A DNA stretch of 44,039 bases, from NCBI GenBank assembly GCA_030821775.1, contig GCA_030821775.1_4700.1; one strand, 5' to 3'. A program made the position numbers and the translations under genes. Below are positions 2,255 to 44,039 of the stretch, piece after piece. The stretch is from a phage. The notes beneath the pieces were generated by a model that did not search any database, had not been told where the DNA came from, and saw only the letters and a program-made list of their open reading frames with translations. The stretch's first letter is position 1; the number at the start of each line of letters is the position of its first letter.

Positions 2255-3804
2255 TAGCCCTCCTGTAATCCTTGTTGAATGACATTAGGTACAGCCTTAG
2301 CCACACCTTCGTTAAGCATAGCCGCCTGCTGGTCCTCCATCGCCTGCTCAGCTTCCTTGCGTAGCTGCTCCTCAGTCTTGAGGAATGGGAGTTCTGCGGA
2401 AATCTGACCGCGTACCCAGTCCATATAGTCAGGCCAACTTATAGCTCTCTGTGCAGATTCAGGCCATGTCTGAGGCAGTGACATGTACTGTGCAAAGGTA
2501 GCCAGCTTGTCTAACTCAGCCATGCGGCCTAGCGCCTCAATACCTGTCACAATCACAGGGTCTACCAGTTCGTTAGTGAAAGAATCACCAGTCTCCAGCA
2601 AGCCCCACATTGCGATAGGTGTCTGCATGGTTACAGCGAATAGGGAGTACACGCCACCCATGTTCTGCTCAATCTCCAGCGCATCACGCTGAATCTCAAC
2701 GGCGGTCACACGTTCTGCATCACGACGAGTTAATGCTTCCATCATGAACACAGTACCAACGCGGCGAGTGTATACCTCAAGCACAGCACTGATTGGTGTC
2801 AGGTCTGCATACTTCCCAAGCTGTACGATGTGGATATCCTCCTCTACACCAGTGATAACCTCACCAGTGCCTGAGTTAACAAAGTGGTCAACATCTGTCT
2901 GAGCGCCGGGACGAATAAGGTACTTGATGTCAGCCATAAGTGCAGCGCCACGCGCCACAGCTTCTGACAGGAACTGGATAACGAACAGGTCGCCAGAGTA
3001 ATCCTCGGCAAGTGGACGGCCCCAATCTTCACCGTAAGAGCGCTTCCATGTCAGTGGAATGAAGGGTAGTTTCTCCTTCTTGATGCGATTCTCTTCTCCT
3101 ACAGGGATATCGTCAGCAGATTGCTTGATCTCCCAGAACCCATCGCCTTTGTACTTAGCGTGAGTGTACAGCTTAACGTTGTCCTCACCTTTGCACTTCT
3201 TGCCTTTCATCGCAACTTCTATAGCCATGCGTGTTGCATGGTCGAAGGTCTTCAAGGCTTTCTCTTGCAGGAGAATAATGTCCAGCAAGTCACCGTTAGT
3301 GTCACGGTTAACGACATAGTGGTGCATCGGGACGGCGCTAATCGCACCTTCCTTCGGCTTGTAAAGCAGGCAGCTACCAGCAACGATAAGGTGCTTAAAT
3401 GCCTCAACGATTGCCGGACGGAACTGGCGCTGCTCCAGTGATTTCATAGCATTAGTTTCAACGCGAGCAAAGATAGTAGCTAGCTGAGTCTTCTTCATAC
3501 CTCGCTTGGCAAGGATTTGTTCACCATTAACCGTAAGGTCTACACGGAAGAAGGAACGTTGTGCAGGGAACAACACCTGCGCCAGCTTGTTGGCTAAGTG
3601 ATTAGTCGCTTGAGCGCCTACACCTTGCCAGCCATTCTGTGAAGTGTTGTTGTCACCTGTATCGTTCATCAGGTATGGAAGTGTCAACTTAGCGTAGTGT
3701 TTAGCCCTGTCAAGGAATGGACTACGCTTAGTAGAAAACTTCTCCCACAGCTTAGGAATCTTCGAACGCTTGCCACCATACGACATGTTGGTGTCATTGC
3801 GCAT
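2254..3804 (-). CDS. Portal (head-tail connector) protein
   Basis: 516-aa ORF with AGGAG SD, immediately upstream of scaffold and capsid; size and synteny match T7 gp8. Confidence 0.8.
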   Translation of the reverse strand: MRNDTNMSYGGKRSKIPKLWEKFSTKRSPFLDRAKHYAKLTLPYLMNDTGDNNTSQNGWQGVGAQATNHLANKLAQVLFPAQRSFFRVDLTVNGEQILAKRGMKKTQLATIFARVETNAMKSLEQRQFRPAIVEAFKHLIVAGSCLLYKPKEGAISAVPMHHYVVNRDTNGDLLDIILLQEKALKTFDHATRMAIEVAMKGKKCKGEDNVKLYTHAKYKGDGFWEIKQSADDIPVGEENRIKKEKLPFIPLTWKRSYGEDWGRPLAEDYSGDLFVIQFLSEAVARGAALMADIKYLIRPGAQTDVDHFVNSGTGEVITGVEEDIHIVQLGKYADLTPISAVLEVYTRRVGTVFMMEALTRRDAERVTAVEIQRDALEIEQNMGGVYSLFAVTMQTPIAMWGLLETGDSFTNELVDPVIVTGIEALGRMAELDKLATFAQYMSLPQTWPESAQRAISWPDYMDWVRGQISAELPFLKTEEQLRKEAEQAMEDQQAAMLNEGVAKAVPNVIQQGLQEG

Positions 3805-4024: not shown

Positions 4025-4537
4025 TTAGAACTTATGATTGTACACAGTGCCGAACGTTTCAAAACCTAAGCGGTTAAACATACGACCGACACGCTCTTCG
4101 TTGATACCGGAGGCGATAGACAGGCGAGCCTCAACACACGCCATAGACTCAGCCCACGCCTTGTACTCCTTGACTAAGCGCATACCCATTAATGAGCCTC
4201 GCTTCTCAGGAACCATATAGAATAGCATATCACTAGCCACAATAGCAGGGTTCCACGGAGCCATAGGGTGGGTCGCAGCCCACAGGAAGCCGACAACCTC
4301 TCCATCTTCCACTGCCACCCACAGAAACATATCGCTTCTTGTGAGTGACTGACAGAGGAAATGTGCGCTGGTTTCGGCATCCCATACGGCGCAATGATGA
4401 GCCACCTTCTTCACCTCTTCCTCAACATAACGATTCCCTAGGTTTATGATTGAGGGAATATCGAGAAAGGAGGCAGGACGAATCATGGATGCACCACGAA
4501 TTGTTGCCGAATGCAAGACAGGATATATCGCTTGCAT
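4025..4537 (-). CDS. GNAT-family N-acetyltransferase
   Basis: 170-aa ORF with an acetyl-CoA-binding-like motif (EKRGSLMGMRLV) and GNAT-like beta-strand pattern; start codon uncertain (no clear SD). Confidence 0.55.
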   Translation of the reverse strand: MQAIYPVLHSATIRGASMIRPASFLDIPSIINLGNRYVEEEVKKVAHHCAVWDAETSAHFLCQSLTRSDMFLWVAVEDGEVVGFLWAATHPMAPWNPAIVASDMLFYMVPEKRGSLMGMRLVKEYKAWAESMACVEARLSIASGINEERVGRMFNRLGFETFGTVYNHKF

Positions 4538-14894: not shown

Positions 14895-14912
14895 TGTCCA
14901 ACACGTTGGACA
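14895..14912. repeat. Conserved palindrome, copy P2 (TGTCCAACACGTTGGACA)
   Basis: Perfect 18-bp palindrome with complementary AAGG/CCTT flanks, in the gap upstream of the DNA polymerase gene. Confidence 0.8.
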
Positions 14913-16064: not shown

Positions 16065-16082
16065 TGTCCAACATATTGGACA
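16065..16082. repeat. Conserved palindrome, copy P3 (TGTCCAACATATTGGACA)
   Basis: Perfect palindrome ~17 nt downstream of the primase/helicase stop. Confidence 0.8.
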
Positions 16083-16098
16083 AGCCCTGATAAGCACA

Positions 16099-18090
16099 CT
16101 AGAACTCCTGCTCTTCTTCGAAGTTACCTTGTTCTATAGTGTCCCCTAAATCAGCAGGCACCTCTTGCTGCTTAGGTACACCTGTATCAAAGCTCTTGGT
16201 TCGTGCTTGTGGTTCCCTCAATCTACCGGTAGCAAGGTCTCCTTTAAGCATAACCTTAGTTCCTGTGAAGATACCTTGGTCACGGTCTTTGACACATGAG
16301 ATGTACGTGGTAGTCCTTTCATCAAGCGTTTCAGCTCTTGTGTTACGCTCAATCCCCAATGCGTAAGATGCCCAGAATCCGATAGCTCCTGAGCCTCGGA
16401 AGTCAGAAAGGATAACCTCGCCACCTTCCTCGTGTTGGGTGCGGTTCCCCGCAGGACGTGTAAGGTGTGATACAAGGAATATAGTAACTGGGTGTCGGTC
16501 TTTGATAGTACCAATCCGCTTGACGCATTCATCAAGTGCACCAACCTTCCCACCATATGCTCTTTCATCTAATTTAATCCCAGTTAAGTTATCAATAAAG
16601 ATATTCTGAATCCCCATAGCTTCAAACTCTAAGCAGGTCTGCTCAATCTTCTCCATTGAGTAGTCACCTTCGAGGTCAGCTACAAAGAACTTACCCGTAT
16701 CAGCCACGTAGTCGATAGCTTCAGCCGCTTCCTCATCGGTATAGTCCAGCACCTCGCGGTAGCCATCCTCTTGCGGGTCGTTGGTTGGCGGCAACTCAAT
16801 GCGCTTATCAATCCACTTCCCGATGAATGCACGGGCAACCTTCTTGGTTGGGTCTTCTGTAGAGATAATGCCTACAGACTCGCCGTGCTCTTCGATGAGG
16901 TGCTTAACCACTTCACGAAGGAACTCAGTCTTACCTACACCGGAGCCAGCACCGACGATGATTAGCTGGTGCTTACGGATACCAAGCGTTACCTTGTTCA
17001 GCTTAGGCCAAGGCCACGACAGCCCTTCTTCTGGACGTGCCTGCTTGAGTTCGTCACGCATAGACGCAACGGACTTAATCTGGCTACCGAAGACTTCCTC
17101 AGAAGACTTGGCATTAAACCAAGCATCGACAAACTCTTTGGCCTTACCCGCCATCAAAGACTTGTTAGCATCCTTGCAACCACTTGGATACTCAAGGATG
17201 TAGGATTTGCCGGGAAACAGGCGAGCCGCTTGTTGGTTCTGCTTCTGCCCTACCTCGTCGCCATCGAATCCCCAGATAATCTTCTTGAATTGGGCGATGT
17301 GTTCACGGTTCTGCACAATCTCTTCAAGGCAAGATTCACCTTTGTTAACAGACCACACATGGTAAGGTTGCCCTTCCCACTTAGTACCCTTGGCAGAATC
17401 AAGGAGCATTTGCTGGGCTGCTAATGCATCCAGTTCACCACCCACGATAAGCAAGATATCTTTTCTTCTTCCCTTGTCCAACGTGTTGGACAGGGTATTC
17501 ATACCGAAAAGATCTTGTGTACCAAAGAGTTTACCTAGGTGTCCGAACTTAAAATCCTTCGGCAACGTCCGGCATTTTGCTCCAACAAGCACCCCCTTTT
17601 CATATCGTGGATAATAGTGACGGTTGACTCTTCCCTCTTCATCGTGTCCAACGCGCACATCGTACATTGCTGCGATGTCACCTCGAATGTGACGGGATAC
17701 AAGGTTCTTACGCTTAAGCGTGAGGAACCATTCAACATCAAGTTTCCACTCTGTTTCTTGGTCTGCCCTTTCTTGCTCATTCATAACCTCCCAACGGTCT
17801 TTCATACGCATACCACCAAGGGCGATGGCGCGTAGTTTAGGGTCGCTTATCTTCCCTTCTTTCTCCATCTCTTTGAATTGAGAAGGTGTGTATTTGATGT
17901 TGCCGGTAATAGGCAACTCGGTTATTTCGATGCCACCTTCCGGCTTATGGTAATAAGGTCTGCCATTATCATGGAAGTGACCACGGTTACAGTAGCCAGC
18001 ACCATCCTCGAATATCATAAGGTGGTTGCCTGATTTATCGTGTCCATTCTTCTGGCATTGAGGGCACGGAATGTTATTAATAATAGCCAT
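16099..18090 (-). CDS. DNA primase/helicase (T7 gp4-like)
   Basis: 663-aa ORF with an N-terminal Cys4 zinc ribbon (CPQC...C..GH) and a Walker A P-loop (GAGSGVGKTE) in the C-terminal helicase half. Confidence 0.9.
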   Translation of the reverse strand: MAIINNIPCPQCQKNGHDKSGNHLMIFEDGAGYCNRGHFHDNGRPYYHKPEGGIEITELPITGNIKYTPSQFKEMEKEGKISDPKLRAIALGGMRMKDRWEVMNEQERADQETEWKLDVEWFLTLKRKNLVSRHIRGDIAAMYDVRVGHDEEGRVNRHYYPRYEKGVLVGAKCRTLPKDFKFGHLGKLFGTQDLFGMNTLSNTLDKGRRKDILLIVGGELDALAAQQMLLDSAKGTKWEGQPYHVWSVNKGESCLEEIVQNREHIAQFKKIIWGFDGDEVGQKQNQQAARLFPGKSYILEYPSGCKDANKSLMAGKAKEFVDAWFNAKSSEEVFGSQIKSVASMRDELKQARPEEGLSWPWPKLNKVTLGIRKHQLIIVGAGSGVGKTEFLREVVKHLIEEHGESVGIISTEDPTKKVARAFIGKWIDKRIELPPTNDPQEDGYREVLDYTDEEAAEAIDYVADTGKFFVADLEGDYSMEKIEQTCLEFEAMGIQNIFIDNLTGIKLDERAYGGKVGALDECVKRIGTIKDRHPVTIFLVSHLTRPAGNRTQHEEGGEVILSDFRGSGAIGFWASYALGIERNTRAETLDERTTTYISCVKDRDQGIFTGTKVMLKGDLATGRLREPQARTKSFDTGVPKQQEVPADLGDTIEQGNFEEEQEF
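16134..16151 (-). promoter_or_regulatory. SP6-type phage promoter inside the 3' end of the primase/helicase gene
   Basis: Plus CTATAGTGTCCCCTAAAT located within the last ~17 codons of the gene. Confidence 0.7.
17475..17492. repeat. Conserved palindrome, copy P4, inside the primase/helicase coding sequence
   Basis: Perfect palindrome TGTCCAACGTGTTGGACA; encodes ...TLSNTLDKG... about 200 codons into the gene. Confidence 0.8.
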
Positions 18091-18502: not shown

Positions 18503-18532
18503 GCAAAAGAAAAGGGAGGCCGGAGCCTCCCA
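18503..18532 (-). terminator. Rho-independent terminator after the RNA polymerase gene
   Basis: Perfect 7-bp GC-rich stem GGGAGGC/GCCTCCC with a 4-nt loop (plus 18514-18531), followed on the minus strand by UUUUCUUUU, ~10 nt after the RNAP stop. Confidence 0.6.
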
Positions 18533-18542
18533 TGATTATTTC

Positions 18543-21161
18543 TTAAGCAAAACAGTAGTCGCTATCCATGATTTCGTTCAGGTCAAAGCTGCCTTGCTCT
18601 GGCACTTCGATGCCAGTATCAACCATCCAGCGGTCTTCGTGCTCATCAAGCAGTTTCTGCAAGGCGTTCCCTTCTGAGTACATGCCAACCATTTCTGATT
18701 TCAGTGCATGACGCAGCTTAGCGGTATTGTCTGCGTGAGTACCAAAGGAGTCGTGAATCACTGCAATACTCGTCACCCCTTCATCAACCAGATGACAGAC
18801 GGTCAGAATCAGGTGGCTTGCGTCATGACCATGAACGAAGTTAGGCGCTGCTGCTCCCATCATAGCGGTTTCATCCACTACATCAGTTTCAACTTGCAGA
18901 CTCATTTTGATGTCACCCATCAGGCAGGTGCGCACACGGAGCATCTCGGTCGCCATAATTTTCTGCTTCAGGATGAAGCCAGTTGGCAGTGGGTATTCCA
19001 ACCCTTCATTGCGCTTAGCTGCAAAGCGAGCCAACTTGCGAATCATCTGCATCGCCACTACCGGAGCCTTAACAACCTCAGAGATGGAAGGCCAGATGAG
19101 CGCCGTCATGTAGTTGTATGCTTTAGCCGGAGTAAGTTCACCGTTATCATCAAACGGGTGCACACGGTTCGCTGCGCGCCCTTCTGCCACCGCCATTTGT
19201 GCCTCTTTCTCTTCCAAATCGACGATATAGTCAATCACAGAATCACGGCAGGTGATGCGAGTAGAGCCGTAAGGCAGCGTCATTACTGGTTTCTTGGTCA
19301 GGCCACGGGTAATGCCTACGCTATCCCATGCGCTAGCCATAGCTCGAAGGTCAGAGCCGGAGAGGGTTAGGCTTCCGCTCGTGAAGGTCGTCCCTTCTTC
19401 GGCATCCATATAGAGCACATTTTTAGAAATGACCACCTGTGCAACCGCGCCGTAAATATCCTGCGGAGCGTCGGACGGCTTCAGGTTTACAGCTTTAGCG
19501 CCCACCTCATCGCGTAACATAGCGGAGTAATGCTGAATGCCGGAGCAAGAGCCATCTTGGTGGACTGGCAGGTGAGTTTCGAAATCGGCCTGCGTCCCTT
19601 TATCCAGTGCATCCAGATAGCGGGAGTATTCGAAGCACCAAGCAAGAAATTGGTACGGCTCATCCGCTTTAGCCCACTGTGTGAAAGTCAGCGGGTCGGC
19701 TGCAATGTCACGGCACATATCTTGGAAATCACCGTCTAACACGTTGGACTGACGTACGTCAAAGGTCTTCTTATCCCAACCCCACAGGTTAGCGCCCAGC
19801 ACGAGGAACCATTTAAGAGCTCCAGCGCTGTCAATCTTCCGCCCCTCTGTGAAGCGTAACAGAGATTTACCCAGGTCGTTAGACTGTGGGGACAGGGTGG
19901 AAGATTGAGCGTAAACACGGCTGCGGCTGTCCATCACGTAGACGAAGTAGATGGATTCAAAGGCGCTATATTTGCGAGCCTGTCCAATCATGCGAACCAC
20001 GGCGGCAGACTTGGAGCCGCGCTTTGTTTCGGCGGTGTATAGTCGCGCACACTCCCCTTTCCAGTTAATGAACGCCTGCCATTGCTCTTCTGATAGCATT
20101 TCTTTCAATTCACGACCCCGAAGATGTTGGAACTCAACCGGAACAGGGTTAGCAGGCTTGTTTTCCTTGTCAATTAGTGGCTTAAAGGACGGCACACCAT
20201 AGCCCAAATCAAGGCGGATGACGTCTTCAGCTACCGCTAAAACCTCTTTGTTAACCTGCCATTTGGTGTTTTGTAAGGCGTTAATAGCCTTGTACACCTT
20301 AGGCATTTGCTTAACAGTAAGTTTGCGAACATGCTCACGGTCGCCCTTAACCAGACGCACACGACTAGCCACCTTCTCAGTATGGAAGCCACCATTAAAC
20401 GGGGTTTTCCAAGGACGAGGAGGAACAACGCAAGGAGCATAGGCTGGGGCCAGTTGTGCTACGTGCTCTTTAAAGGCTGCAATCCATTGGCCTACAGTTT
20501 CGGAGGTTTGCAGGTAATAAATAGTTTTACCGCCAAATGAGCGCATAGCGCGAACGAACACAGGCTCACCGTTGTAGAATACGCTAGCTTCTAGTATTTC
20601 CAGCAGGGTAGTACCAATCTGCAATTGTGTATCTTTAGGCCATGCCTCCCAGCGGTCAAAGTCAGCGTCTTTAGCGGCTACAGACTTCTCAGCCACTACA
20701 GCTACATTGTGAGCGTGACGGTATGACTTGGTGCGGCTAGCCTTAAGCGATTTCTTCACTTTCTCGAAGTATTTCGCGGCGTGGCCTTCCAGCTTGCTGA
20801 AGCGCACTTGGTCTTCGATGCGCTCGGCAATGCTCATAGAAATGGCCTGCAATGTTACATCAGTGTTCAGCATATCCATAACTACCTTCATGGTAATATA
20901 GGCTGCCACCTCGTTTTCTACACACTGTAAGAAGGCTAGGGCACGAGGAGCGCGGCCTTTCTTGCCTTCGTATTCTTCTTTGTAAGCCTGAATGCCTTCA
21001 GCCATAGGCGCGATTAATTCAGACAGCAGGCGGCGATTCCATGCCGTATCTGATTCATTACCCGATGCTATTTGGCGCTGTTGGTCTGCCTCAAAGCGAC
21101 GGATCCCGCCATTAAACATTTCTTCTTCAAGCTGAAGCTGGATAGCGTGTAAGTCCTGCAT
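18543..21161 (-). CDS. Single-subunit DNA-dependent RNA polymerase, SP6-type
   Basis: 872-aa ORF with AGGAG SD; N-terminus [32 protein letters not shown]... and overall sequence match my recollection of SP6 RNAP almost residue for residue; consistent with the SP6-type promoters across the genome. Confidence 0.95.
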
Positions 21162-22620: not shown

Positions 22621-22769
22621 GATTTAATCCTCATTAGTTAGTTAGGTTACATTATAGGAGACTCAAGAGAATCTCCTAGATTTAACCTATCCCGACTAAG
22701 AAGCTACCTATCCAAATCGTTAAAGAGCTTGGTTTGCGCCTTGATAGGCCAGCTTATGCTGGCTGCTAT

Positions 22770-22949
22770 CTATTTGTAAACACGTAACAAGTGCAAGGAT
22801 TGCTTAAAGCCGTGCTCTTTGATATATGCAATAGTTCTTATATGACAAGTAAAAGCAGGCTCCCATTTATCAGACCCTCGCTTCTTACCATATATCACCT
22901 CCATATCTTCTAAGATATCGTACTTTAATCTATCAGTAAGTTTACGCAT
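22770..22949 (-). CDS. Small early protein (59 aa)
   Basis: Hand-translated ORF MRKLTDRLKYDILEDMEVIYGKKRGSDKWEPAFTCHIRTIAYIKEHGFKQSLHLLRVYK; weak SD. Confidence 0.35.
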   Translation of the reverse strand: MRKLTDRLKYDILEDMEVIYGKKRGSDKWEPAFTCHIRTIAYIKEHGFKQSLHLLRVYK

Positions 22950-23063
22950 GATAGTTTACCTTATCAGTAAGCCTATCAAGACACAAACCAAATTATTAAA
23001 GAGCGTTGCCTCTCGGCTATGTGCTTAATGTAACCTTGTATGCCGTGGCTGTCAATAGTTAAT

Positions 23064-24601: not shown

Positions 24602-26314
24602 CTACTTTGCAACCCAACCTTGAGCAGATGTACCAGATTCTTTAATGTACAATGTACTACCACCAGACCCATTAATACCAGTTGCCAAAGAACCGACAGG
24701 TGCACCTACACCTAAAGTTGTAGGATTGCCATTTAGTCCATAAACAATCACCGTACTAGAACCGACTCCTTGGTTATTCTGAGGTGCTTGCGTACCATAG
24801 CAATCATTGCCAATTAGTTTAATATTGGAGCAAGAAGAAGTAACACAAATACCAAGGCTTGGCTTGTTAGGGCTTTCTCCATCTACTCCAATATTACCTT
24901 CTACTAGGATGTTGTTAGCTCCTGTGTCTATACTAATGAAGTGTCTACCTGCTTCAGCGGTAGATACTTCCTTCATATTATTAGCTTTAATCACTAGACC
25001 GCTAGCCTTGCAGTTTACATGAATACCATATTGCCCTAATTTAGAGAAGATATTACGACTAAGTATACCTTCTCCTGATAAACCAGTACCAATGAATGTA
25101 GTAGCATCAGACTCACCTAACCAAATCCCACTACCTCTTCCGTTTTCCCAAGTATTACCTTCGATGTGGTATTTTGTCCCAAAGCGTAAACCGATTAACC
25201 CTAAGCCACCAGAGCCTGTATTACCTTTTACAATTAAATTCTTACACCACCTTGCATCTACACCATAGGATACATCCCCTGTGAGGATCATAGTATTATT
25301 AGAAATTTCAATATGGTCATGCCAAATGTCACTAATATCGGTAAAAGGCCAAGATGGTGCATCAATTAGCACTGGTGCTCTTACGCCATCAAAAGTACAA
25401 CCTACAACACTACCTTGTCGAGTCCCTTGCGGTTTAGTTTGAGAGGAGACAGGTGTAACATGAACGCCTCTTGCATTAGAGTTTCTAAAGGTGCAACCAC
25501 GTACTGTCCAGTTTTTCCAGTTAAATACACGTACACCTGCAAAGAGAGCACCATCTGTAGTGCAATTCAAGATACGGATATTGTTGCCCTGTACACCATA
25601 AGCTGAGGCGTGATTTCCGATTAGTGCACCATAACCTCCAAACCCGGATTCTGGGTTTGGACCAGCATAGCAATTCTCCACCAGCATACCACTAGACTGC
25701 ACATAGTGACCAACTGTAATAAGTCCTGGGTCTAACTGTATAGCCTCTGAGAAGCTACGACTGCCTGTATTCTTAAACCCTAGGAATTTACAATCACGAA
25801 TAACTACGTTGTTCCAATCTGCTAAATCTATGGCGTGGTAGTCCACTACATTGTTAACTGTTATGCCTTCAAACTTCAAATCATTATTACTAGTAGATGC
25901 AAATACTACAAAAGGTGTATCCCCTTTAGTGTGACCATTGCCTTCATAGACACCTCCACTGACTGTTACATTACTAGCTTGCCTTTGTGATAATCTGAAT
26001 AGCGTATCTCCTGTTTCGTAGTCACGTACAAATGTTACACCTTTAGCAACCTTGAAGTGTGTATTAGCAAATATCTCAACAGTACCACTGAGTTTATATT
26101 CGCCAGCTTTAGTGACTGATACAGTACCACCGCCTAGCAATCTGACCGCATTGAATGCAGCTTGAAGGGCTTGCCTGTTGTCATTAGAAGAGGGATTAAC
26201 TCCAAAATCCGCAACATCTATTGTATCCGATAGTTTATCAGATAGCAGGCGCTCAATAGTACCTGTTAGTTTACTCTTGTACTTCACCAAGTAAGCACTT
26301 AATCTTTGAAGCAT
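24602..26314 (-). CDS. Tailspike 2: beta-helix polysaccharide depolymerase
   Basis: 570-aa ORF with AAGGAGG SD; N-terminal pectate-lyase-3-like motif (DVADFGVNP...), many Gly/Asn-rich repeat turns typical of right-handed parallel beta-helix tailspikes; terminal position as in SP6/K1-5. Confidence 0.7.
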   Translation of the reverse strand: MLQRLSAYLVKYKSKLTGTIERLLSDKLSDTIDVADFGVNPSSNDNRQALQAAFNAVRLLGGGTVSVTKAGEYKLSGTVEIFANTHFKVAKGVTFVRDYETGDTLFRLSQRQASNVTVSGGVYEGNGHTKGDTPFVVFASTSNNDLKFEGITVNNVVDYHAIDLADWNNVVIRDCKFLGFKNTGSRSFSEAIQLDPGLITVGHYVQSSGMLVENCYAGPNPESGFGGYGALIGNHASAYGVQGNNIRILNCTTDGALFAGVRVFNWKNWTVRGCTFRNSNARGVHVTPVSSQTKPQGTRQGSVVGCTFDGVRAPVLIDAPSWPFTDISDIWHDHIEISNNTMILTGDVSYGVDARWCKNLIVKGNTGSGGLGLIGLRFGTKYHIEGNTWENGRGSGIWLGESDATTFIGTGLSGEGILSRNIFSKLGQYGIHVNCKASGLVIKANNMKEVSTAEAGRHFISIDTGANNILVEGNIGVDGESPNKPSLGICVTSSCSNIKLIGNDCYGTQAPQNNQGVGSSTVIVYGLNGNPTTLGVGAPVGSLATGINGSGGSTLYIKESGTSAQGWVAK

Positions 26315-26399
26315 GTAACCTCCTTTTCTGAAAGGCTACCACCATGATAACCTTTAAGAAAAGTTGCGTGAAAAGCAGTGCTTACGCACTGCCTGTTGC

Positions 26400-28298
26400 T
26401 TACTTAGGCAGGGAAGCTAGTGCTTCCTGCATACGCTTAATAGTCCGCCGCATCAACGCAGCCTCTAATATCAGTACTTCCTCGTAACGAATACCGTAGC
26501 GGGAACCTGCTGGTGTAATCAGTTTACGAGAGCCATTGGCATCTTCCTCGTATACATCATCCCAACTGTCGAAGCACAAGAAGCCATAGCGATGTGCATC
26601 TATACCGTGACGTTCGAAAGCCTCCTTAGCTCGCTGAGCGATGATGCCAAAGTGCCATCTAGCTGAGTCTACACCCTTCTCCTCAATTCGGTCCAAGTAC
26701 TGAAACTGCACAAAGTCAACTTCAGACCAAGCATCCAGTAAAGCATCTGAGATAATAAGAGGCTCTGTTTTATCCCTAGCATCTGAGACAACAGTGAATG
26801 CTGATTGAGTAAAACCGCCAGACCACACTCGATCGGCGGAACCTAATGCGTATGTACCAGTACTATTTGGGGTCATTGCATTAGCACCTAACTGCAAATA
26901 GCCTTCTCTACTGGTAGAAAGACGCACGTTACCGTTGGTGAGGGACACTGTCCGATAAGTACCATCAGAAGTAAATAGGCGAACTTGAGAAGAAGTACCC
27001 CCACCTACAGCTAATGACACAGCACCGTCCCCAAGCATTCTGTACTTATCAGCAGAAGTAAGAGCGCCAGAAGGGGGTGACATGGACTTAATCCGCCATT
27101 CGAACCTACCTGACATACTACCTATGTACTGCCCTAAGGCAGGTGCGTGCACTACGTTACTATTATTAGTGCCGTCAATAGTAGCTGCACCGGCAATAGT
27201 ACTAGCAGAACTGAGAAGGTCGTTTCTCCTGCCAGGGTGCTTTACCTCTACGAAGTTACGTGTAGAGCCGGATTCGAAAGTAATAACACCTGTAGCACTG
27301 TAGCTAGGAAATACAGACGCATAGTTGTTATTAGCTGTACCTATAAAGCGTGCAATTGTAGCAGTCTGCTTTTGTCCTAAAGAGTTAGTACCATCACATC
27401 CTGACATAAGCACATTATTTATGACGTTATCAGAACCCTCTACTGTAACACCATGAGCCTGCCCAGCATCAGAAGTTGAGTAATCTACGAGCACGTCTGA
27501 GATTAAGTTCGTACTTCCTTTGCCTGCAACAACCGCTGCATACTTAGGGTTATTAGCCATCACCCCCTTGATAAGGTTATTAGAAGGAGCTATTGGCCCT
27601 TCAGTGCCGTTGTAAGTTACATGCTGACAATCTGTCCCTATAACATTACTGACTATGTTGTAACTGGCTTTACCTTTCAACTCTACTGCTCCGAACTGAG
27701 GGTAGTTCTTAGCAATGACGTTATCTATGAGGGAGTTAACTGAGGAATCAGCAAGTACGCATCCGGCTGCCTTATTAGTAGCATAGCCGGAATAGCTACC
27801 TCGAATGCCTTTAATCATAAGTCCATCCGGTGGCGCACCATTAGGGTATGCGATTAAACTGAAACCAATACCTTTAACGTCTGAGAAGTTAACGTCACTT
27901 ACAGTAACATCACTTCCACCAGCAAGGGATACCTGCTGTCCCTGAGTTGTATCAGTCGCCTTATTACTTTCTACCGTAATATTACTTAAGCGACCTGCAC
28001 GTAGATTGTTAAATACTAGGTAGTTACCTGTACTTGAACGGTGACTTAGCACGCCACTACCCCTGCCGTCTAAGTTACAGTAATTACTATTAATACCAGA
28101 GCTAGAGAATACACCATCTGAGACTGTGACAGCTTTCTGAGAGTTTAATGAAGCAGCTATAACCTCCGTATCATCAGTAGTGGCGTCACCTGCAGCACCA
28201 AACGGCTTTGATGTTAAAACTCTCGCATCAAGGTACTCATACAAAGATTGTCCTTTATGCAAGATTCCTTCAGTATTAGGTTTGGTTAATTTAGCCAT
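26400..28298 (-). CDS. Tailspike 1: depolymerase with C-terminal intramolecular chaperone domain
   Basis: Track ORF 26400..28358 begins at TTG; the ATG at 28298 (MAKLTKP...) has an AGGAGA SD. N-terminal FGAAGDATTDDT motif, beta-helix repeats, and a C-terminal ~128-aa domain (SDARDK...GIIAQRAKEAF...) resembling the self-cleaving chaperone (peptidase S74) of endosialidase and K5 lyase tailspikes. Confidence 0.75.
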   Translation of the reverse strand: MAKLTKPNTEGILHKGQSLYEYLDARVLTSKPFGAAGDATTDDTEVIAASLNSQKAVTVSDGVFSSSGINSNYCNLDGRGSGVLSHRSSTGNYLVFNNLRAGRLSNITVESNKATDTTQGQQVSLAGGSDVTVSDVNFSDVKGIGFSLIAYPNGAPPDGLMIKGIRGSYSGYATNKAAGCVLADSSVNSLIDNVIAKNYPQFGAVELKGKASYNIVSNVIGTDCQHVTYNGTEGPIAPSNNLIKGVMANNPKYAAVVAGKGSTNLISDVLVDYSTSDAGQAHGVTVEGSDNVINNVLMSGCDGTNSLGQKQTATIARFIGTANNNYASVFPSYSATGVITFESGSTRNFVEVKHPGRRNDLLSSASTIAGAATIDGTNNSNVVHAPALGQYIGSMSGRFEWRIKSMSPPSGALTSADKYRMLGDGAVSLAVGGGTSSQVRLFTSDGTYRTVSLTNGNVRLSTSREGYLQLGANAMTPNSTGTYALGSADRVWSGGFTQSAFTVVSDARDKTEPLIISDALLDAWSEVDFVQFQYLDRIEEKGVDSARWHFGIIAQRAKEAFERHGIDAHRYGFLCFDSWDDVYEEDANGSRKLITPAGSRYGIRYEEVLILEAALMRRTIKRMQEALASLPK

Positions 28299-28382
28299 GC
28301 TATCTCCTATTACTTCCCAACCCTCCCCATGAAGATTGGCTAGTAATAGGCCGCTCAAAAGAACGGCACTATCTTATCTCTT

Positions 28383-28400
28383 CTATAGTGTCTCCTAAAT
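28383..28400 (-). promoter_or_regulatory. SP6-type phage promoter upstream of the tailspike genes
   Basis: Plus CTATAGTGTCTCCTAAAT ~85 nt upstream of the tailspike 1 start. Confidence 0.7.
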
Positions 28401-43294: not shown

Positions 43295-44025
43295 CAGAAC
43301 CTCCAAGGACGTGGCGGGTAAGAGTCATAAGGCGAGTGAGAGAAACCCGCAACGTTCTGGTAGCCACCAGCCATGACACCAAACTGCGCCTGAGTTGGAT
43401 TATGTACAAGCATATTGAGTCGCTTCTGAGCAGACTGCTCCGCCTGTACGCTTGTGAGAAGTTGAGATGCGATAACTTGGTGAGTTTGCAGTTTAGTCTT
43501 GTCTGCAGCCTTAGACACAATGAACTCACACGCTGCATGATAGGTGATTGCCTGCATCACACTTGTAGGTAGATGCTCGAATGGTAACATCATAACCAGT
43601 GTCAGCCGGATATTGCCGTCACGGTTCACATGGCTACGCAGGTCGAACGTATGATTCCAAGTAGAGTACAGCTTACCTGCTCGCATGGTCATTGGGACTT
43701 TCTTGTCATTAAGACCATAACATTGCAGAACAGCCAAGGTATTGTTAGGTAGGTTCACTTCACCGTTTGAGTCTGGAGTTAGGTTCCAGTTAGGCTCACG
43801 GTTGAACCACCAGCCGTTCCCTTGGTTGTACTGGAAACGCTGTGACACAATATCGACAATCTTGTTCGCATCCTCTGCGTCCAAGTCACCAGACTCTAAG
43901 GAGTCCACACCTTCACGCCCAATGGCTCGCATACACACGTTGACAGCCTCTAACTTGCTATCAATGATGTTGAATGCTGCATCAGACATTAAGGATGTTA
44001 CATCACTTTCCTGAATAAGTGGCAT
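43294..44025 (-). CDS. Tail tubular protein A (T7 gp11-like)
   Basis: 243-aa ORF with AGGAGG SD; if the window is circular, its start follows the capsid terminator at position 1 directly. Confidence 0.75.
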   Translation of the reverse strand: MPLIQESDVTSLMSDAAFNIIDSKLEAVNVCMRAIGREGVDSLESGDLDAEDANKIVDIVSQRFQYNQGNGWWFNREPNWNLTPDSNGEVNLPNNTLAVLQCYGLNDKKVPMTMRAGKLYSTWNHTFDLRSHVNRDGNIRLTLVMMLPFEHLPTSVMQAITYHAACEFIVSKAADKTKLQTHQVIASQLLTSVQAEQSAQKRLNMLVHNPTQAQFGVMAGGYQNVAGFSHSPYDSYPPRPWRF

Positions 44026-44039
44026 GAATCCTCCTAAAC

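Follow-up and report, generated by a model that had tools for sequence, protein, structure and literature searches.

A conserved hairpin between the two tailspike genes of a K1-5/SP6-like phage as a predicted leaky terminator

The tailspike locus of the phage lies on the minus strand of a DNA stretch of 44,039 nucleotides (GenBank assembly GCA_030821775.1, contig GCA_030821775.1_4700.1), hereafter the window, and comprises two tailspike genes, spike 1 and spike 2, separated by a gap of 85 nt (26315–26399). The 5-kb region around the hairpin that occupies this gap matches 146 phage records, with Vectrevirus EEc4, 6948 and LL11 as the best matches (95–96% identity) and K1-5 next, and, judged by sequence, the window is the genome of a K1-5/SP6-like podophage (Vectrevirus). 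The minus strand carries every gene (all long ORFs) together with all 12 matches to SP6-type promoters, and the window thus presents the genome in a reverse-complemented, circularly permuted orientation. The break falls at a homopolymer, since the window starts inside the T run that follows the capsid gene and the next gene, coding for tail tube A, is found at the opposite end of the window. The promoters of the window are of the SP6 type (ATTTAGGNGACACTATAGAAG), whereas the closest relatives of the spike region (LL11, K1-5, K1E, CrRp3 and R4596) use ATTTACTGGACACTATAGAAG, a type of site that is absent from the window. Because the promoter type differs despite 95% identity in the tail region, a different polymerase specificity and a mosaic genome are suggested. 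In the replication-gene region a perfect inverted repeat, TGTCCAA-N4-TTGGACA, is present in three copies, located inside the primase/helicase gene (17475–17492), just past its stop (16065–16082) and upstream of the DNA polymerase gene (14895–14912); these repeats could constitute a protein-binding site or an origin-related element.

The features of the locus and the two other terminator-like hairpins of the window are collected in Table 1. The K5-lyase type of spike 1 is taken from the annotation of LL11, while the Peptidase_S74 match of the same protein represents a chaperone domain. The true start of spike 1 is the ATG at 28298, which is preceded by AGGAG, and not the TTG at 28358 from which the mechanical ORF list reads the gene (652 aa), this TTG falling within the structured leader. 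The stop codon of spike 1 is a TAA at 26400–26402.

Table 1 Features of the tailspike locus and other terminator-like hairpins of the window, in order of minus-strand transcription within the locus.
Feature	Position	Strand	Description
SP6-type phage promoter	28380–28400	-	ATTTAGGAGACACTATAGAAG; sole phage promoter 5' of both spikes
Spike 1 leader	28307–28367	-	Small G+C-rich hairpin, then long hairpin up to the Shine-Dalgarno; z = -4.8
Spike 1, K5-lyase-type tailspike	26400–28298	-	632 aa; full-length PHROG 14895 'tail spike protein' match and Peptidase_S74
Extended 9-bp HP1 helix	26373–26394	-	Adds G26393.U26374 and A26394-U26373 to the core; -14.8 kcal/mol
HP1 core	26375–26392	-	GCAGUGC-GUAA-GCACUGC on mRNA; 7 Watson-Crick bp (5 G-C), GNRA tetraloop
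Short U tract and spacer	26364–26374	-	UUUU (26371–26374), then CACGCAA; adjoins the 3' side of the core stem
HP2, long imperfect hairpin	26323–26363	-	7-bp outer helix (CUUUUCU/AGAAAAG) and 11-bp inner helix, 3-nt loop
Spike 2 Shine-Dalgarno and start codon	26312–26325	-	AAGGAGG (26319–26325) and ATG (26312–26314); GGAGG and ATG nearly invariant among relatives
Spike 2, right-handed beta-helix tailspike	24602–26314	-	570 aa; PHROG 2234 'tail spike' match
Hairpin past the RNA polymerase gene	18514–18531	-	GGGAGGC-UCCG-GCCUCCC, then UUUUCUUUU; 12 nt past the gene (18543–21161)
12-bp hairpin with a run of 14 T	1–50, 44025–44039	-	After the capsid gene (97–1260); resembles T7 T-phi

The first element of the gap is a hairpin, HP1, which begins 5 nt past the TAA of spike 1. 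The initial annotation had described it as a perfect 7-bp stem with a 4-nt loop, located in the 85-bp gap between two tailspike genes and followed by no U tract. The stem and loop are found in the sequence exactly as described (GCAGTGC-TTAC-GCACTGC at 26375–26392 in the plus-strand form), and the identity of both flanking genes as tailspikes is borne out by their PHROG 14895 and PHROG 2234 matches. The U tract, by contrast, had been sought on the antisense strand. On the mRNA strand UUUUCACGCAACUUUUCUU lies directly 3' of HP1 and the stem is followed by UUUU, so that the terminator reading had been given up as a consequence of a strand error. The first two U residues of the tract are also able to pair within the extended helix, and UUUUCACG, the sequence following HP1, contains 4 U in 8 positions, below the 5 T in 8 used by the terminator scan on the minus strand; intrinsic terminators usually show no fewer than 5–6 U in 8 at this place. 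Among the relatives 2–4 U follow HP1 and never 5 or more (TTTC in SP6, TTCT in CrRp3 and TTTA in Proteus phages). An alternative pairing of GUGCG with a downstream CGCA was discarded, as it comprises only 4 bp and is not conserved. The window contains no second copy of HP1 at up to 3 mismatches, the covariance model R1 finds the module formed by HP1 and the following hairpin, HP2, only once, and a scan of the whole window against Rfam at the gathering threshold returned no match.

The 3' arm of HP2 extends into the Shine-Dalgarno of spike 2, overlapping its 5' part, and the spacer that separates HP1 from HP2 is single-stranded and U-rich in the fold of the region. The leader of spike 1 folds directly 3' of the promoter (28307–28383), with a layout that parallels HP1 and HP2 and has been kept from SP6 through to K1-5. 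The record of Proteus phage Pm5460 lists this leader hairpin, directly after a promoter, as 'terminator'.

The window shows no enrichment of perfect hairpins that have 7 bp or more in the stem and 3–8 nt in the loop: 17 are observed against 16.6 ± 5.3 expected from 100 dinucleotide shuffles of the window, and those with at least 5 GC pairs number 4 against 2.75 expected. The chance of finding one such hairpin inside an 85-nt gap is p ~0.03 when the window alone is considered. Folding of the intergenic region, which the initial annotation had proposed as a check, yields z = -4.2 for a stretch of 121 nt, with 0 of 200 shuffles folding as well. The decisive evidence that HP1 is real is nevertheless provided by its conservation with covariation across related sequences and not by the statistics of the window.

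The 85-nt gap matches 110 phage records, while the spike genes that flank it vary among phages; the conservation in two-spike relatives that the initial annotation had asked for is thus found. The gap is shared by the E. coli phages K5, K1-5 and K1E, by Salmonella SP6 and by phages of Citrobacter, Proteus, Klebsiella and Pectobacterium, with identities of 100% in K5, LL11 and VEc3, 97% in K1-5 and K1E, 92% in SP6 and 81% in the Proteus phages. A 95-nt query likewise matches the K5 record Y10025 at 100% identity and K1-5 at 97%. The similarity of the window to K1E, SP6, R4596 and the myophage alia starts at the hairpin itself (26391–26394), the adjoining spike sequence being unrelated. In pairwise comparison the two spike bodies vary and are flanked by three stretches of conserved sequence. 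The first holds the promoter and leader of spike 1 with the initial codons of this gene, the second (26394 to about 26261) runs from HP1 through HP2 and the ribosome-binding site to the end of the initial 17–45 codons of spike 2, and the third is a downstream gene of 49 aa. HP1 is the first element of an 85-nt conserved linker between exchangeable tailspike cassettes in K5, K1-5, K1E and SP6-type phages. In every relative examined it lies at most about 10 nt past the stop codon of the first-slot gene, and in the single-spike relatives R4596 and 101117UKE2 it is still found 3' of the spike gene, followed by a different second hairpin. In K1E (L004, NC_007637) the annotated stop of gene 46, at 3008–3010, coincides with the TAA of the HP1 loop (GUAA), so that this truncated ORF of the first slot enters the hairpin.

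Covariation was counted on 15 distinct aligned sequences scored against the structure formed by HP1 and HP2. Standard pairs occupy 96.3% of the cells, compared with 36–57% when the partners are slid by 1–3 columns, and 7 pairs are changed on both sides, compared with 0–2 in the slid-partner controls. The observed values were reached by none of 500 shuffles for four of the five measures and by 3 of 500 for the remaining one, further pair types. Three adjacent pairs of HP1 covary, the first being A-U in 11 sequences and G-C in 4, the second G-C in 9, C-G in 5 and A-U in 1, and the third U-A in 8, G-C in 5 and C-G in 2. The inner six pairs of HP1 are intact in all 15 distinct relatives and the outer pairs in 12–13 of the 15, while 14 of the 15 variants keep at least 2 U immediately past the stem although the stem sequences differ. 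In HP2, 97% of the cells are paired and 3 pairs are changed on both sides. Both helices are predicted independently by RNAalifold. The fold is also strand-specific: the GNRA loop and the G.U pairs of HP1 exist on the mRNA strand only, the G.U pairs of HP2 are likewise confined to the minus strand, and model R1 matches the minus strand with 109 bits, whereas on the plus strand it detects HP2 only, with 28.9 bits. The covariation of the stem and the far better score of the sense strand identify HP1 as an RNA-level element and, as read from these comparisons, a selected structure of the sense RNA. The suggestion that HP1 is an mRNA stability or processing element therefore stands as far as its RNA level is concerned. 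The dismissal of a terminator that accompanied it does not, in view of the UUUU and of the annotations of three relatives. As far as could be found, selection on the RNA structure of the predicted terminator had not been supported by comparative evidence before this covariation.

HP1 displays the G+C-rich stem of at least 5 bp and the 3–8 nt loop of a terminator on the transcribed strand, and is located 3' of a gene along the direction of transcription. An identical hairpin is annotated as 'terminator' in LL11 (TransTermHP), and HP1 is annotated as a terminator in R4596 and KAW1A4500 (ARNold, -16.9 kcal/mol). A terminator was also predicted after the tail spike gene(s) in a paper on UAB_Phi78. 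A plus-strand terminator, which the scan had flagged, was ruled out since the plus strand holds no genes or promoters. HP1 is, in this respect, an ordinary feature that is already known and annotated in relatives. It is predicted, with about even probability, to be a leaky factor-independent (intrinsic-type) terminator that also serves as a 3'-end-protecting hairpin of the spike 1 message; both termination and 3'-end protection, and their efficiency, are inferred. The late minus-strand transcript would start at the promoter at 28380–28400 and cross the K5-lyase-type spike gene. Five nucleotides past the stop, the RNA would form a G+C-rich, GNRA-capped hairpin of 7–9 bp followed by UUUU, at which a minority of polymerases would halt. 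HP1 would then end the spike 1 message and guard it against 3' exonucleases, while most polymerases would go on to transcribe HP2 and then spike 2 with its ribosome-binding site. A literature search retrieved no transcript or transcriptome data for this phage subfamily.

The leakiness of the predicted terminator follows from the arrangement of the locus. The promoter scan detected no further phage promoter match from 28380 to 22185, and the gap between the spikes contains no CACTATAG core and no phage promoter. As the only phage promoter is that at 28380–28400, the expression of spike 2 must use read-through of HP1. K1E has a single active spike, gene 47, located 3' of the hairpin, and its gene 46 has been reduced to a truncated remnant (PMC6966330). 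With spike 2 lacking a promoter and the only active spike of K1E located 3' of HP1, any termination at HP1 must be inefficient. Single-subunit phage polymerases usually require a longer U run, as is known from the class I signals of T7. The window has two other terminator-like hairpins, whose tails have 7 T among their first 8 bases and which are much stronger than HP1. That at 18514–18531 looks like an early terminator for the host polymerase. The 2–4 U of the relatives, the U content below the scan threshold and the much greater strength of the other hairpins of the genome thus indicate that HP1 is not an efficient terminator.

The main rival to the leaky terminator, essentially the idea of the initial annotation, is a purely post-transcriptional barrier to 3' exonucleases or processing element, and it is considered somewhat unlikely. 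The bicistronic RNA would be cut by RNase E or RNase III in the U-rich spacer or in HP2, so that HP1 would close off the spike 1 mRNA at its 3' end and HP2 that of spike 2 at its 5' end, and each message would have a half-life of its own. Such a role agrees with a stem that is kept by covariation next to a short and variable U tract, with the obligatory read-through past HP1, with the single-stranded, U-rich nature of the spacer and with the similar two-hairpin design of the spike 1 leader. The HP2 helix, at 18–19 bp (18 bp and a 1x1 mismatch), is also near the length required by RNase III, although borderline. HP1 itself was rejected as an RNase III site of the T7 type, which comprises ~20 bp of double-stranded RNA and often an internal loop, because its helix of at most 9 bp is too short. 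Against the pure barrier, no cleavage site can be shown, and the U residues retained after the stem in 14 of the 15 variants would be needless. HP1 is found moreover in single-spike phages with a different second hairpin, and each K1-5 baseplate reportedly bears six copies of one spike and six of the other (PMC6966330), leaving no obvious need for unequal spike expression. In view of the same two observations, the hairpin following the spike of single-spike R4596 and 101117UKE2 and the equal copies in K1-5, the earlier proposal that HP1 tunes the ratio of the two spikes finds no support. Reading HP1 and HP2 together as a structured 5' leader that governs the translation or stability of the downstream gene, instead of a 3' element of the upstream gene, appears improbable. 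It would account for the parallel succession of small hairpin, long hairpin and Shine-Dalgarno in front of spike 1 and for the overlap between the HP2 3' arm and the 5' portion of the Shine-Dalgarno. HP1 and the small hairpin of the leader are however non-homologous, U residues follow HP1 only, and the matches of model R1 to the position of the spike 1 leader in the relatives L016 and L008 are weak (23–25 bits); furthermore, HP1 stays beside the upstream stop even where HP2 has been replaced, in R4596 and 101117UKE2.

A role at the DNA level, in which the 85-bp block is kept as a homology patch for recombination of spike cassettes and the hairpin is incidental, is likewise improbable. It draws on the onset of homology to K1E, SP6, R4596 and alia at the hairpin beside unrelated spike sequence, on the presence of the block in the 147-kb myovirus alia and on the cassette model of K5, K1E and K1-5 that Scholl and co-workers are said to have put forward in 2001. 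A homology patch, however, requires sequence identity rather than pairing, whereas HP1 is the most divergent part of the block across genera and yet remains paired through compensatory changes, with G.U pairs that make the fold strand-specific. This DNA role may coexist with an RNA function but leaves the structure unexplained. It is further in line with the proposal, made for other phages, that a terminator motif 3' of receptor-binding genes is a recombination hotspot (PMC10408124). Finally, a weak sigma-70 promoter (TTCACG, 17 nt, TATCAT; 26372–26344) driving spike 2, with the hairpin as an insulator, was rejected as extremely improbable: its 9/12 match to the consensus is set against a number of promoter-like sites in the region that is below chance (5 vs 8.3), against the position of TATCAT within the HP2 stem and against its replacement by TATCAC in K1-5. 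In T7/SP6-type phages it is the phage polymerase that transcribes the late genes.

The HP1-HP2 block is also found outside the podophages, in the Escherichia phage alia (L005, MN850632; 4001–4077, record positions 22710–22786) and in J-01 (PQ438393). In alia, a Justusliebigvirus myophage of 147 kb, the block is 87% identical to window positions 26394–26318 and is placed directly past the stop of alia_23, without a following spike gene; this non-coding block is the only sequence that alia shares with the window. A DNA search for a Vectrevirus donor of the alia_23 gene body found none. Close by, at 4118–4320 of L005 (about 22827–23029 of the alia record), a block of ~200 nt contains a gene for a 49-aa 'membrane protein' beside tailspike genes. 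This second block accounts for most of 315 phage-record matches, which include, among those listed, Phapecoctavirus, Justusliebigvirus, Salmonella phage SKML-39 and Shigella phage pSb-1, and it could represent a further, widely shared, limit between spike cassettes. A more speculative and distinctly unlikely reading would make HP1 and HP2 a portable RNA 'cassette junction' that travels with tailspike genes, even from SP6-like podophages to the 147-kb Justusliebigvirus myophages, with RNA processing (cleavage between or within the hairpins) uncoupling neighbouring spikes and the DNA providing a crossover point.

For the predicted leaky terminator, the result matters little beyond a correct annotation and leaves the understanding of the element unchanged. 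In K1-5/SP6-type phages, this hairpin indicates where the first spike cassette ends on its 3' side. As the structure is under selection and spike 2 depends on its read-through, the whole 85-nt linker (26315–26399) should be kept intact when spikes are swapped for retargeting.

The closest known counterpart of the gap is the 85-base conserved intergenic region of K5, K1-5 and K1E, present also in SP6, which we take to be the same element. The tail genes of K5, K1E and K1-5 are reportedly modular, with an 85-base gap that holds two regions of symmetry and no promoter (J Virol, 2001). The window gap shows homology to this linker between the slot-1 and slot-2 tail genes and agrees with it in position, in its length of 85 nt, in its two dyad symmetries and in the lack of a phage promoter. 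Only the downstream spike is different, as the window codes for the 570-aa beta-helix protein, as do LL11 and EEc4, and not for an endosialidase. With intrinsic terminators, including the class I terminator T-phi of T7, HP1 shares a G+C-rich hairpin, a stable tetraloop, 3' U residues and a location just past a stop codon. In contrast to them it is followed by 4 U (2–4 in relatives) and must be largely read through. Hairpins that stabilise mRNA between cistrons comprise the REP elements in malEFG, the hairpins of the puf operon and the 3' hairpins left at T7 RNase III sites. Similarly to these, HP1 is stable, lies between two cistrons of one transcript and could stop 3' exonucleases, but its 9 bp are too short for RNase III and the products of the two genes are reported to be equal in stoichiometry. 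The last counterpart is 'Motif three', a conserved predicted terminator of 20 nt located 0–19 nt 3' of receptor-binding-protein genes in Gamaleya-, Kutter- and Justusliebigviruses and proposed as a recombination hotspot (PMC10408124). Compared by description only, its size and position resemble those of HP1, as do its predicted function and the proposed connection with the exchange of spikes. BLAST searches with seven HP1 variants gave significant matches only in SP6-like podophages and in the Justusliebigvirus phages alia and J-01, with none in Kuttervirus or Gamaleyavirus; one Justusliebigvirus, alia, carries HP1 itself.
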